Of a DNA stretch of 64,000 nt, positions 16,691 to 60,156 are shown one piece after another. The notes under the pieces are model-generated. The model did no database searches, was not told the origin of the DNA, and saw only the letters and a program-made list of their open reading frames with translations. This DNA is from Octopus vulgaris (taxonomy: Eukaryota). The DNA is taken from positions 49,352,001-49,416,000 of the forward strand of contig OX597826.1 of assembly GCA_951406725.2 (NCBI GenBank), in the 5' to 3' direction. The position numbers and the translations under genes were made by a program. The first letter of the stretch is position 1. Each line of letters opens with the position of its first letter.

Positions 16691-16874
16691 AACGTCCATT
16701 TTCCATGCTAGCATGGGTTGGATGGTTCAACTGGGGTCTGGGAAGCCAGAAGGCTGCGCCAGGCCCAGTCTGATCTGGCAGGGTTTCCAGATCAGACTGG
16801 GCCTGGCGCAGCCTTCTGGCTTCCCAGACCCCAGTTGAACCATCCAACCCATGCTAGCATGGAAAATGGACGTT
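16691..16874. repeat. Perfect inverted repeat, 88-bp arms, 8-nt loop
   Basis: 16691-16778 is the exact reverse complement of 16787-16874. Confidence 0.95.
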
Positions 16875-22826: not shown

Positions 22827-22934
22827 TATATATATATAGATAGATAGATATTTATAAAATGCCATTTTGTTGTAACACAGACGTCAAGGAAATCCAGTTG
22901 ACTGCATTTACAATATGAAATATTTAAATTTCAG

Positions 22935-23105
22935 GCAAAATGTTTGGTGCCAAAATCATCCGTGCTCATAAAGAGAAACCTGACCCAAGCAAGCCCCATG
23001 TAAAACGACCAATGAATGCATTCATGGTATGGGCAAGAGAAGAGAGAAGGAAAATTCTGAAAGCATGTCCTGACATGCATAATTCTAACATTAGCAAGAT
23101 TTTGG
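22935..23105 (+). CDS. SoxD: SoxD exon, N-terminal half of the HMG box
   Basis: tttcag|GC, (S)[57 protein letters not shown]|gtaagt. The [20 protein letters not shown] signature is typical of group D Sox proteins. Confidence 0.97.
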
Positions 23106-23716
23106 GTAAGTCATTTATTTCTACGTCATTATTCTGTTATTTATTCATATATGTATAGAAATTTTACTTGGGGAGCTTATAAACCTTTAAAATTTTAAAA
23201 TAGACATTTTTATTTTGGGGTTTTTTTTTTTTTTTGAATGAATATAGAGATAGATAAGTAAGATAAGCAGAAATGGAAATAACATCTTTAATCATTATCA
23301 TCATCAAAATGATGATGATGATTAATGATGGATTGAAATATGTAAACAATTTATAAGCAAGCAAGAGGAGGTTGAGGTGGTATGTAAATCAAGGTATTCA
23401 TTGTACATAAACATGTGCAAAGTTTACAGTTATTGAAACAGAAAGAAATAGATAGAATAATGTTTGTTTCCATTACTGACAGTCAGAGCTTGTGTGTAGG
23501 AAACATTTCAAAATGGCTTCTTGGCTTTTCATAAAGATTCAGTATTTAAACTATAATTATGTTGGGTTAGGGGAATAAATTTTGATAAAATGATAAGAAA
23601 ATTTCATTGAAGGTTCTTAGTTGTGTCTTTGAAATTTACTTTCAATCAGTTTGATAACTTCAGAGATCTTTTTAACCTTTGTATTTATTTATTTTTACAT
23701 GTTATTTCTTTGATAG

Positions 23717-23822
23717 GGGCCAAATGGAAAGCTATGTCTAATGCTGAGAAACAACCGTATTATGAAGAACAATCTCGTCTAAGCAAGTTACATATGGAGA
23801 AACATCCAGATTACCGGTATCG
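23717..23822 (+). CDS. SoxD: SoxD exon, C-terminal half of the HMG box
   Basis: tttgatag|GG, (G)[36 protein letters not shown]|gtaagt (phase 2). Confidence 0.97.
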
Positions 23823-24023
23823 GTAAGTATTATTCATATCTTGGCTATAATTCAGTTATTTGTAACAAAAAATAAGGCCTACGTAGGTTATTTAATGCTT
23901 CTCATATATTTTGGCGAAGTATTCCTTTATCAAATATGTGATAGAAAATAATTCAAAGATGTTTATTATTGGCAGGTCACTTTGACAATGTATTTCAAGT
24001 TTTATTCCACTCACTTTTTGCAG

Positions 24024-24157
24024 ACCAAGGCCAAAAAGAACATGCATAGTAGATGGGAAGAAACTGCGGATATCAGAATATAAAGCTTTGATGAAAAGTC
24101 GAAGACAAGACATCCGACGAGTTTGGTACAATGAAAGTGGAACAACTTATGTGGAAG
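24024..24157 (+). CDS. SoxD: SoxD exon, conserved post-HMG tail
   Basis: tttttgcag|A, (R)[45 protein letters not shown]|gtaaat. [18 protein letters not shown] is SoxD-diagnostic. Not in the ORF track on this strand; translated manually. Confidence 0.96.
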
Positions 24158-24290
24158 GTAAATACTCCTAGATTAAAATAACTGAACCATTAACTTCACT
24201 AAAACATTCATTGTTTGTAATACAATGTCAGAGTTTTTGTCTCATAAAACTCACAAATGCATGCGGCATCTAAAAATGTAACACACTTAT

Positions 24291-27433: not shown

Positions 27434-27685
27434 GTAGACTTATCTGTTATGGATCCTACTAACACCTTCGTCAGGAGACAAATATCTCCTGATGAAGATT
27501 CTGACTAGGATGTGAAACAGATGCTCCTAGCTATAGAATCAATATATTTAATCCTTTGTAGACTTACCTGTTTTTTGGTCCTACAAACACCTTCATCAGG
27601 AGACAAATATTTGTCTCCTGATGAAGATTCTGAGTGAGATATGAAACAGATGCTTCTAACTACAGAGTCAATATATTTAACCCTT
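27434..27685. repeat. Tandem dimer (~125-bp units) with divergent CTGATGA/CTGACGA hammerhead-type cores
   Basis: Units start gtagactta at 27434 and 27558. Perfect 36-bp palindrome at 27591-27626. CTGATGA at 27489 and 27618, each followed by GAAACAG. Confidence 0.7.
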
Positions 27686-27710
27686 TAGCATTCATATTAC
27701 TCTGTCCAAT

Positions 27711-53229: not shown

Positions 53230-54585
53230 TATCGTCGTCGTCGTCGTCGTCGTCATCATCATCATCATCATCATCATCGGGCTCCCCAATGGAAACAAAC
53301 TAGTTGCCATTTTAATTCCAAATTCTCATGCTGCCATAATGTGTTTGTGTTCTTTCTGTCCTTCTGTCTTTCTTTCTTTCCTTATTTATTTAGTTGTTTC
53401 TTTCTTTCTTCCTGTCCTTCTTTCTTTCTTTCTTTCCTTCTTTCCTTCTTTCTTTCTTCCTTTCTTTCTTTCTCCCTTTCTCTATTCGATACATGCCACG
53501 TGTTTTGCTGTTGTTTATTTTTCTATTCTTTTCCAATGGATATTTAAAGTTTATGTTTACATTGACATCTATTAAATAAAAAACAAAGAAAAACAACAAC
53601 AACAACAACAACAAAAAACAATCACCATTTCTTTCTGTTATTATTATCTTTCATTATTTAGGGTGTATTAATGTGTGGAATGGCAAAAACGGTAGAATTT
53701 AGGGACAAAAGAAATCACACTTTTGGTTATACACCTTGATTGTCATCAATTCAAGCTTAGCCACCTTGGATAAACACCGGCTTTCATTCTTCAGGGAGGA
53801 ATTGTGGGAAGGAGGCCAATAAATTTAGCTCAAGTACTTCTATCAATCTAATCGTACGGCTTGCTAATGATTCTGCCAGCTCGCCGCCTTATGGAAGAGG
53901 AATATTAACGGCATAAGGATCATTAGTCGTGGAAGACCTGAACTGACCACGGGGCACTATCTCTTTACCTCTTTGAGCTCACCATCGAATCAAAGCCTTG
54001 CAGTAACTGCAGAACCCATTCCTTCCTCGTCAGGATATCATCCCTCTGGATAACTATACATTCCTTCAATATTTCTAACCGTGTAAGGCTGTGAGCTGGC
54101 AGAACTGTTAGCACGCAGGGCAAAATGTTTAGTAGCATTTCATACGTCTTTACGTTCTGAGTTCAAATTGCGTCGAGATTGACTTTGTCTTTCATTTTTT
54201 CGGGGTCGATAAAATAAGTCCCAATCGAGCACTGGGGTCGATATAATCGACTAACCCCCTTCCCCGAAATTGCTAGCCTTGTGCCAAAATTTGAAACCAA
54301 TATTTGCGATCTCACAAGGCAGCGAGCTGGCAAAGTCGTTAGCACGCCGAACAAAATGCTTAGTGGTATTTCGTTCATTATTACGTTCTGAGTTCAAATT
54401 CCGCTGAGATCAACTTTGCCTTTCATCCTTTCGAGGTCGATAAAATGAGCACCAGTTAAGAAGCAGTGGAATTTTACCTCACCCACTGAAATTGTTGGTG
54501 TTGTGCTAAAATTTGAAACCAATATTTGTGACCTTCAGCCTAACTTTAAAAATCTGCACGAATCGTATTCATTAATTAAACTTTT

Positions 54586-54844
54586 GAAATTAATTAAACT
54601 TTTGTCCATGTTAATTAATCTTTCGTCTATCAAGTACTCATCAGTGAGAAGAAAAGAGAAAATACAAGCACATATCCATTTCTGGAAGTAGTTTGGGGTA
54701 CAGCAAATTTCGTTGGAATAGAAGAGACAAGGTACCGTTTTTCTAAAGACCGACGGAACGAAACCGTTGAGGAAGGAAAGGATAAACAAGTGGCTCGTGC
54801 AGTGGGTTCTCTCCAAGAACTTACCTGACAAAGATTAGCACTGT
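54586..54844 (-). repeat. Direct repeat copy 1 carrying a canonical-core hammerhead-like motif
   Basis: Similar to 56687-56946 (offset 2101). Minus strand CTGATGA GTACTTGATAGAC GAA AGATTAATTAA..TTAATTAATTT C. Confidence 0.75.
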
Positions 54845-54939
54845 ACCAAAGACTTGCAGAATACCAAGTCCAAATAGTGCAGAAGGTAGACTATGCCTTT
54901 CATTCTTTCAAGGTCCATAAAATAAAGTATCAGCCAAGT

Positions 54940-55280
54940 AGTAAAGGGTAAAGACCCCCTTCGGTCACGACACAGACCATGGGATTGCACCTAGAAAGTT
55001 ACCCTCCTAGACACAAGTCCGGGCAAGGTTGTTTATGGAAGGCCAGCAGTCGCCCATACATACCAGCCTCCCCTCTCCACGCTACCAGTGTTATCCAAGG
55101 GAAAGACAATGGTCGATACAGCTTGGCACCAGTGACGTCGCAACTCATTTCTACAGCTGAGTGAACTGGAGCAACGTGAAATAAAGTGCCTTGCTCGAGA
55201 ACACAACACGCAGCCCGGTCCGGGATTCGAGCTCACAACCTCACGATCGAAAGCTCGACGCTCTATGTATGCCATGCGCC
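54940..55280 (-). mobile_element. tRNA-derived SINE family C (degenerate copy at 9197-9410, +)
   Basis: tRNA-like head ...gagctcgaatcccggaccggg, followed by gagcaaggcactttatttcacgttgctccagttcactcagctg. Confidence 0.75.
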
Positions 55281-55346
55281 AAGTATGTAGGGCTGGTGGT
55301 ATGTATGACCTCCTCTGTCAAAACTATTCACCTACTTATGTATTAG

Positions 55347-55385
55347 ATGTATGTATGTATGTATGTATGTATGTATGTATGTATG

Positions 55386-55416
<31 letters not shown>

Positions 55417-55598
55417 TGTATATATTGTATGTATGTATGTATGTATGTATGTATGTATGTATGTATGTATGTATGTATGTATGTATGTATGTATGTATGT
55501 ATGTATGTATGTATGTATGTATGTATGCATGCATGCATGCATGTATGAATGCATGCATGTATGTATGTATGCGTGCATGCGAGCTTGTATGTATGTAT
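55347..55598. repeat. (TATG)n microsatellite
   Basis: Directly visible. Confidence 0.97.
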
Positions 55599-56135
55599 TT
55601 TTTATTCAAAACTAGAACTGGTAACTGCCATTATCCTTTGCCATTTATCATCATCAAGCATTCTCTTTTGGAATTCTATTTATTCGGTCATGGAACTTCC
55701 TAGCACATATAGTTTTCACTCTGATCCTTCTTTCATTTTTGACAAACTGGAATGGTCTAATATCCTCGACTGAGGATATTACTTCATTTTTACATCTCTC
55801 TGACTTCTCCCTATCTGATGACGGCATACTCATCTTATGGAAGACTTACACAATGCTTGGCTATTCTAGAAACAGCTGTAAGGGATTCTATATGTTCATA
55901 TTCTCTATATGCATTAAATGGGCTTGTTAGTGATGCCAAATGTTTGCTTTTACATTTTTATTTTAATCTATGTGTATGCACATATGTTTATATGTATGTA
56001 TATATTATGAATGTAAGTATGTGTTTAAATGTATGTGTGCATATATGTATGTATTTATGTGTACATATGGATATACACACACACACATACATATATATAC
56101 ACATATATACGTAAACACGCATATTTATATAGTCA

Positions 56136-56190
<55 letters not shown>

Positions 56191-56686
56191 ATGTATATGT
56201 ATGTATGCATATATATATATGTACACATACACATATACATACGTATATACATGTCTATGGGTGTGTGTGCATGTGTTGAGAGAGGGATATGTAAATATAT
56301 ACATATATACACATGTATATTTATAGACGCTTATATATGTATGTCTTTCTGCTCTCTCTCTCTCTCCCTCTCTCTCTCCCCCTCTCTCTCTCTCTCTCTC
56401 GCTCTCTCTCTTTCTCTCAATCTCTTTCTCTGTCTCTCTCTCTACACACATATATATGTATGTATGTATACATGTATGTATATGCTTGTGTGTGTATAAT
56501 ACATAATAACATATGTGTGTGTATGCATGTGAGTGTGTGTATGCATGTGAGTGTGTGTATGCATGTGAGTGTGTGTATGCATGTGAGTGTATGTGTGTAT
56601 AGAAACAATAACACATACCAGCGAGCAACAAAATCTACATTCAGTTGGTATTAATTAAAATACACACCGAGTTAATATTTCACCAG

Positions 56687-56946
56687 GAAATTAATTAAAC
56701 TTTTGTCCATGTTAATTAATCTTTCGTCCATCTAGTACTCATCAGTGAGAAGAAAAGAGAAAATACAGGCACATATCCATTTCTGGAAGTAGTTTTGCAG
56801 TACTGCAAATTTCGTTGGAATAGAAGAGATAAGGTACCGTTTTTCTAAAGACCGACGGAACGAAACCGTTGAGGAAGAAAAGGATAGACAAGGGGCTTGT
56901 GCAGAGGGTTCTCTCCAAGAACTTTCCCGTCAAAGACTAGCAGTGT
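56687..56946 (-). repeat. Direct repeat copy 2 carrying a canonical-core hammerhead-like motif
   Basis: Minus strand ttctca-CTGATGA-GTAC TAGAT GGAC-GAA-11-bp stem III-UUC. Confidence 0.75.
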
Positions 56947-59826: not shown

Positions 59827-59857
<31 letters not shown>

Positions 59858-59863
<6 letters not shown>

Positions 59864-59977
59864 ATAGAAGGAGTTTACAGGACTAGTACTGTTTCATTCA
59901 AATGAAATCATCAGGAAGCTGATGATTTCATTTGAATGAAACAGTTCTAGTCCTGTAGAAGCTCCTTCTATAAAATA
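59858..59977. repeat. Fold-back of two back-to-back CTGATGA hammerhead-like motifs, (TA)n-flanked
   Basis: Arms meet at tcatcag-gaag-ctgatga. Plus strand CTGATGA tttcatttgaat GAA ACAG ttctagtc CTGT A gaagct. Confidence 0.7.
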
Positions 59978-60045
59978 AATTAATTTACTCTGCAATGTAT
60001 TGAGTACCTTATTTACTGTGGTTAACCTCGACTCAACCCGGGACC

Positions 60046-60156
<111 letters not shown>

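Follow-up and report, generated by a model that had tools for sequence, protein, structure and literature searches.

In a 64,000-nucleotide window of the Octopus vulgaris genome (the whole stretch of DNA analysed here), two direct repeats of about 260 bp carry hammerhead cores on the minus strand. With moderate confidence, we interpret them as local copies of one type I hammerhead, likely the tail of an old Penelope- or retrozyme-type insertion, predicted to be unable to cut in this genome and to have arisen without self-cleaved RNA being copied back into DNA. The locus is, in our judgement, a real but decayed type I hammerhead, of a kind that is already known.

Organisation of the two hammerhead motifs

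The repeats lie at positions 54586–54844 and 56687–56946 with an offset of 2101/2102 nt, and they differ in 18 of 260 alignment columns (93% identity). Sequence comparison within the window thus bears out an earlier note on this DNA, which had reported two direct repeats of this size with hammerhead cores. Read on the minus strand, each copy contains CTGATGA (beginning at 54644 in copy 1 and 56745 in copy 2), followed by a stem II region of 13 nt and then GAAA. Next come the 11 pairs of stem III with their loop of 13 nt, and lastly TTC, which ends at 54586 and 56687, respectively. The elements of the locus are as follows.

56687–56946, minus strand: copy 2 of the repeat (260 bp), at the locus of ancestral type; spanned, together with its left flank, by contigs of organisms E and F
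56746–56751, minus strand: 5′ strand of stem I, TTCTCA (constrained fold)
56739–56745, minus strand: copy 2 core CTGATGA, C3 to A9 (motif search)
56726–56738, minus strand: copy 2 stem II with pairs G-C and U-A, an A·G mismatch, pair C-G and a 5-nt loop (fold)
56688–56725, minus strand: copy 2 GAAA and 11-pair stem III with 13-nt loop (tandem-repeat search and fold)
56687, minus strand: C17 of the UUC triplet, predicted cleavage position (from its place in the fold)
56686, minus strand: extra base displacing stem I; missing from organisms E and F but found in organism C
56679–56685, minus strand: 3′ strand of stem I, TGGTGAA; three pairs, a bulged U and three pairs, in register only without base 56686
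56605–56678, minus strand: tail on the 3′ side of the ancestral-type locus, reaching to a (TG)n microsatellite (spanned by contigs in runs X5, X13 and X14)
55983–56598, no strand: microsatellite tract in the spacer; a second tract lies at 55347–55571
55605–55965, plus strand: member of an unrelated older repeat family in the spacer, with its own decayed minimal-hammerhead-like motif at about 55808–55885
54884–55300, no strand: pieces of unrelated interspersed repeats in the spacer, ends approximate
54586–54844, minus strand: copy 1 of the repeat, core at 54638–54644 and C17 at 54586; two extra changes in stem II / loop II
54549–54585, minus strand: copy 1 flank, probably what deletions have left of the copy 2 tail, without the 3′ strand of stem I and with a 15-nt echo of stem III at its end

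In both copies the type I core CUGANGA, the GAAA and the NUH triplet stand in register, stem II starts with G10.1-C11.1 and has at least two pairs, and stem III is closed by A15.1-U16.1 and comprises 11 pairs with pairing probabilities of 0.28–0.92. The 11-bp stem III and the UUC triplet described previously are present in both copies. The canonical GTCC/GGAC stem II attributed to them is not, as copy 2 contains an A·G mismatch (3 of 4 pairs) and copy 1 forms 2 of 4 pairs; stems of two pairs occur in natural hammerheads according to the available part of PMC3088659. A stem I in register with C17 is absent from both window copies. The earlier statement that its 3′ strand is missing or poor is correct for copy 1, which has none, whereas copy 2 does possess such a strand at 56679–56685, displaced by one base.

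A 21-nt tandem duplication (56691–56731, 90% match), whose unit carries the palindrome TTAATTAA, underlies the long stem III. Without this duplication, stem III would by our reading of the sequence be a 5-pair stem with an AATT loop, a geometry that recurs in an unrelated hammerhead core at locus L034.

Stem I in related organisms and predicted cutting

Eight of the 16 public DNA runs that share part of the stretch were examined, of which six yielded contigs and two (X15 and X16) none. Runs X13 (organism E) and X14 (organism F) gave one contig each, running through the C into the copy 2 flank. Base 56686 is missing in both of these contigs and present in run X5. Without it, C17 is followed directly by TGGTGAA, which in a constrained fold pairs with TTCTCA through three pairs, a bulged U and three further pairs, so that stem I is in register in the alleles of organisms E and F. 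The ancestral-type locus is therefore a complete type I hammerhead. A stem I partner of this kind is offered by 341 of 63,990 positions in the window (0.5% by chance). From the sequences of these alleles, gain of a single base likely displaced stem I in window copy 2. The earlier note had proposed checking whether full copies continue with tgagaa after the UUC; the partner in the continuing version reads TGGTGAA instead.

Nearest-neighbour folding, which ignores tertiary contacts, gave stems I and II a pairing probability of 0.00 in both window copies, compared with 0.83–0.95 in a young hammerhead family of the same genome that served as control. The hammerhead fold lay 7–8 kcal/mol above the free ensemble in the window copies and 4.1 kcal/mol above it in the control family. 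The alleles of organisms E and F complete the topology, yet they sit 9.0–11.9 kcal/mol above the free ensemble; across all alleles the range was 7.0–11.9 kcal/mol, and none had a favourable three-way fold. Shuffled sequences folded at least as well in 188 and 166 of 200 cases for the two copies. By these models both window copies are predicted to be unable to cut. The alleles of organisms E and F might still cut weakly, because natural hammerheads can have two-pair stems and low activity, as described in the available parts of PMC3088659 and PMC4209133. A displaced partner for stem I, as in a type III or rearranged order, was also considered; no partner of at least five pairs follows an NUH triplet on the minus strand between 53500 and 58000.

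Conservation of the motif in two relatives

Within positions 56687–56753 (67 bases) organism E shows no substitution and organism F a single one, located in loop III, while the flanks of the motif differ by roughly 10–15% in both. Between copy 2 and organism E, one change falls among 73 motif positions (56679–56751) and 19 among 120 positions outside (Fisher p = 0.0006); between organisms E and F the counts are 1 of 72 inside and 6 of 39 outside (p = 0.007). In these comparisons, 7 of the 25 differences of organism E and 4 of the 10 of organism F are unlisted and were taken to fall near the contig ends. As the runs had been discovered via shared 31-mers, this filter was simulated; conditioned on three shared 31-mers, and with a uniform-rate null and the right edge of the simulated span read off the data, p was 0.002–0.006 for organism E, 0.03–0.10 for organism F and 0.0004–0.0016 for both together.

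The less changed motif hints, at the level of sequence, at a retained role, and it counts against a purely neutral relic, as neutrality does not predict it. Selection for a host function, exerted on a ribozyme that works in relatives and has just been broken here or on a DNA element, is an unlikely explanation but one with an appreciable chance. The reduced change in organisms E and F, which persists when the discovery filter is simulated, speaks for it, and a precedent exists in the domesticated hammerheads of amniote introns and the Clec2 3′ UTR, as reported in the available part of PMC6155905. It is weakened by the small sample, since conservation is seen in two relatives with a single contig each (depth 6.75 and 3) against a null of uniform rate. 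Moreover, no compensatory pair change was seen in organism E or F, the alleles of both fold as unfavourably as described above, and no minus-strand host transcript was identified among the frames examined. A minus-strand host gene was likewise not identified in the window and the next 150 kb, with 0 Pfam hits in 100 of 181 candidate frames.

Constraint could act on the ribozyme or on the DNA, for example on the paired TAATTA sites of the motif, 21 bp apart, which are putative homeodomain-type sites. About 30 kb before the locus, the plus strand carries HMG-box exons (window 22928–24171; Pfam PF00505), which presumably belong to a SoxD-like gene; the motif is on the opposite strand.

Copy number, spacer and origin of the repeats

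Three genome searches agree on two copies. A DNA search of the whole genome with the repeat returned two candidates, both of them the copies described here; absence of a match in this kind of search does not prove rarity, and the same search with a piece of the spacer repeat, run as a sensitivity check, returned 286 candidates at 69–84% identity. A 23-mer from the repeat body, allowing up to three mismatches, had two exact and two inexact matches genome-wide (control, 2). For a 20-mer of the duplicated unit ten matches were found, four of them at this locus (control, 9), and none of the other six has a hammerhead core upstream. The earlier note had held that its reading would be refuted if only these two copies existed and no version had a stem I partner; the first half proved true and the second false, as the TGGTGAA partner exists.

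Copy 2 differs from organism E by 25 other letters in 282 bases, compared with the 18 differences in 260 columns between the copies. Since the copies resemble each other more than copy 2 resembles organism E, and organisms E and F gave one contig each, a later local duplication is the simplest account. Half of the differences between the copies (9 of 18) lie within the last 65 nt, identity declining toward the far end. To the right of the two copies the flanks do not match significantly (a score as high is reached by 661 of 1500 shuffles).

Copy 2 and its tail occupy about 364 nt and have microsatellites on either side, and the motif lies about 80 nt before the 3′ end; microsatellites occur everywhere in the window. 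By analogy, this layout would fit the tail of a Penelope-type or retrozyme-type insertion as far as such elements are described in the available parts of PMC4209133, PMC7229834, PMC8557442 and bioRxiv 10.64898/2026.07.22.740005. Penelope-like elements and retrozymes typically carry hammerheads of this type, whose helix III is often palindromic, according to the accessible portions of PMC4209133 and PMC7229834. Neither the genome DNA search nor Pfam revealed a parent family linking the 260 bp to a retroelement. A protein-coding origin was rejected, as all nine frames tested in and between the copies matched no Pfam family; between the repeats, no frame for a reverse transcriptase or GIY-YIG domain was thus found. 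A frame at L052:3961–4293, at a distance of about 70 kb, has no Pfam hit at E 1e-4; by eye we take it to resemble a fragment of a Penelope-type reverse transcriptase.

The repeat family represented in the spacer (window 55605–55965; L078–L084) is old, has a length of about 390 nt and accounts for the 286 candidates mentioned above. It carries a minimal-hammerhead-like motif, which in the spacer lies on the strand opposite to the two repeats, with a palindromic CAGCTG helix III, and some of its loci have inverted partial copies. It was rejected as part of the same unit because the 260 bp are absent at all seven family loci compared. A larger tandem duplication was rejected as well, since apart from interspersed repeats and microsatellites the spacer has no match in either outer flank.

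The earlier suggestion of a retrozyme-like unit expanded by insertions keeps some standing, as most of the spacer consists of unrelated repeats, but is at odds with the closer relationship of the copies to each other than of copy 2 to organism E. In its fuller form, the two copies would have arrived in one insertion, a partial tandem built from a retrozyme or Penelope pseudo-LTR unit of about 390–460 nt, and would have been separated by later insertions and in part re-homogenised by gene conversion that halted at the deletion beside the C. We consider this quite improbable. Rough subtraction of the unrelated repeats does leave about 130–200 nt of spacer, the young family in the same genome makes partial tandems of 460–466 nt, and the drop in identity toward the far end would be accommodated. 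However, besides the closeness of the copies, organism E already has a microsatellite beside 56605, no dispersed family members were found, and the contigs of organisms E and F, one each, carry the copy 2 flank, the last being a weak argument as a missing contig proves nothing.

The boundary at the predicted cleavage position

Similarity between the copies had been described as stopping at the C of the UUC triplet. This holds for ungapped comparison, but gapped similarity runs on past 54586 and 56687. In a shuffle test of four allele combinations, the copy 1 flank aligned with the copy 2 flank across a 13-nt gap; the score was reached by 58 and 43 of 1500 shuffles with the window allele of copy 1, and by 7 and 2 of 1500 with the allele of the other runs. 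A local echo of stem III explains 15–16 nt of the copy 1 flank equally well (1 and 13 of 1500 shuffles) but leaves blocks further out unexplained. Because the copy 1 flank resembles a deleted copy 2 flank, the boundary at the C is, on the sequence comparison, most likely a deletion edge that took away the stem I strand. A small local duplication in copy 1 had been offered as another cause of the boundary; a local event is indeed indicated, the change being apparently a deletion rather than a duplication. The flank match is poorer than the 93% within the repeat, and such degradation fits an older pair with later gene conversion.

Runs X1, X3, X5 and X8 gave contigs with the copy 1 flank, different from the window at one or two positions. 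Compared with the copy-1-type contigs of these four runs, window copy 1 (54556–54880) differs in both flanks and also shows many internal differences, including the two changes in stem II / loop II. The mismatch could reflect collapsed assembly bubbles, gene conversion or a divergent haplotype.

The position of the boundary had led to the proposal that in both repeats the 5′ product of self-cleavage was copied back into DNA, so that they end at C17. Ungapped identity does end exactly at C17, and the copy 1 flank contigs of four runs break at the same base. Nevertheless, copy 2 crosses the cut site into the stem I strand, as do the corresponding sequences of organisms E and F, where this strand is in register; the copy 1 flank aligns with the copy 2 flank across a deletion; and only two copies were found, none of them dispersed. 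In the young control family, moreover, all 23 fetched cores run on past the cut site and none ends there; among the 17 loci that were mapped, most downstream ends fall about 145 or 260 nt beyond the cut. We regard the retro-copy proposal as largely refuted and give it very little probability.

Under the preferred explanation, local duplication and decay of one hammerhead, the following history is likely. An element of about 360 nt, presumably a retroelement, whose hammerhead sat about 80 nt before its 3′ end, would have lodged between microsatellites, which is the layout still visible at copy 2. Its short palindromic stem III would then have grown into the 11-pair stem by the observed 21-nt tandem duplication, which we place tentatively at this stage. 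A duplicate of the locus would subsequently have formed 2.1 kb away, probably in a lineage already separate from organisms E and F. Small deletions ending at the C would have stripped copy 1 of its stem I 3′ strand, producing the sharp shared boundary, and one base gained beside the C in copy 2 would have put stem I out of register. Copying back of self-cleaved RNA would have no part in this history.

Significance of the motif and other hammerhead-like elements

The core pattern has 31 matches in the whole genome and one in the reversed control. Combined with TTAATTAA it has five matches genome-wide and none in the control, and a looser version of the combined pattern has four and two, respectively. 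The other cores with TTAATTAA and the Rfam-matching loci show no similarity to the 260 bp beyond the core itself. An Rfam search of the window yielded nothing at gathering score; at E up to 1, all of the 150 matches listed out of 251 were to microRNA models, and around copy 2 no hammerhead match appeared at E up to 10. The young control family matches Hammerhead_1, weakly (18.6 bits). Taken at the level of sequence, hammerhead ancestry of both repeats is supported. That the core is a chance motif in AT-rich, palindrome-rich DNA is hardly credible: the missing Rfam match, folding no better than shuffles and a stem III made by slippage-type duplication would agree with it, but 31 genome matches against one control, a stem III and UH exactly in register, the in-register stem I partner in organisms E and F (0.5% by chance) and the AATT-loop geometry shared with the unrelated L034 core do not.

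The young control family is non-coding, with a unit of 460–466 nt and an intact type I hammerhead comprising a 7-pair stem I, a 4-pair stem II and an AUA triplet. It contributes 24 of the 31 genome hits of the core pattern, its copies being 92–99% alike (L003–L006, L008–L010, L012–L016, L019, L021–L028, L031 and L032; e.g. G000:C8:28203834-28204322). It forms partial tandems and inverted arms beside (TA)n, with preferred ends away from the cut site, and its sequence makes it a good candidate for a retrozyme that is still active. Further hammerhead relics of low copy number occur at L029:1213–1560, L011, L018/L034, L033 and L042, in some cases together with a partial, inverted partner; L033, L034 and L042 carry the TTAATTAA palindrome in helix III.

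Further elements of the window were noticed. Positions 59829–60060 contain head-to-head minimal-hammerhead-like motifs (cores at 59914 on the minus and 59919 on the plus strand) in an inverted repeat between (TA)n, which looks like a two-armed relic of Penelope type. At 27434–27686 lies a tandem of 129 bp that has CTGATGA...GAAACAG cores on its plus strand and cores of CTGA type on its minus strand; it is probably another decayed hammerhead-bearing element. A near-perfect, GC-rich inverted repeat of 98 nt at 16734–16831 has sub-threshold Rfam matches to microRNAs.

Comparison with known hammerheads and biological meaning

The motif shares the core letters, G10.1-C11.1, A15.1-U16.1 and the NUH triplet with the Rfam model Hammerhead_1 (RF00163; Schistosoma/newt type) but differs by its stem II mismatch and long stem III and is unmatched by the model at E up to 10. 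Compared with the Penelope-like pseudo-LTR hammerheads of Cervera and de la Peña 2014, as far as the available part of that paper (PMC4209133) describes them, it agrees in its type I order, in stems I and II that are short or irregular, in a palindromic helix III (here before the duplication) and in an occurrence mostly as scattered single relics. It departs from them in lacking a reverse transcriptase or GIY-YIG frame between or beside the copies, a dispersed family and the extra base between A9 and G10.1, and in the extension of helix III to 11 pairs by internal duplication. Like metazoan non-LTR retrozymes in the accessible portions of PMC7229834 and Li, Clavereau and Pollet (bioRxiv 10.64898/2026.07.22.740005), the repeats are non-coding and AT-rich with a type I hammerhead, and form two direct copies on one strand. 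Those retrozymes, again in the available part of PMC7229834, consist of contiguous units of 170–400 nt in dispersed families, whereas the octopus repeats are 2.1 kb apart, number two, both lack an in-register stem I and are known from DNA alone. Neither contiguous tandem units with complete hammerheads (2101-nt spacing, spacer of unrelated repeats, incomplete motifs) nor a dispersed multi-copy family (two copies genome-wide) was found.

With the domesticated hammerheads of amniotes (RECK and other introns, Clec2 3′ UTR), as presented in the available part of PMC6155905, the octopus motif has in common the single locus, a probable retroelement origin and a motif less changed than its flanks across relatives. 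It differs in that conservation is seen in two relatives only, at about 10–15% divergence, that stems I and II are weak, and that the motif is broken in the octopus genome and is not known to lie in a host transcript.

There is a slim chance that the locus represents a retroelement-derived hammerhead domesticated at a single site near a Sox-type gene in octopus-like animals, kept by selection and cutting in related species, whereas in this lineage cutting would have been lost or a role at the DNA level alone retained. As part of the same idea, the tandem duplication of half of the motif might have freed the hammerhead from dimer formation, leaving a "frozen dimer" stem III. The papers found in our literature searches describe, in the text covered, no conserved single-copy mollusc hammerhead, and a search on helix III built by tandem duplication found nothing. 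Those on octopus or cephalopod hammerheads and retrozymes do not describe this locus in the text covered.

The locus advises caution: where a repeat stops at a predicted cut site, its edge can be that of a deletion. As a relic it would matter little, because the genome contains many decayed hammerheads and the window three more candidates; it would matter more if the conservation holds up. If domestication proved true, the conserved hammerheads of amniotes would have in the octopus motif a counterpart among invertebrates.
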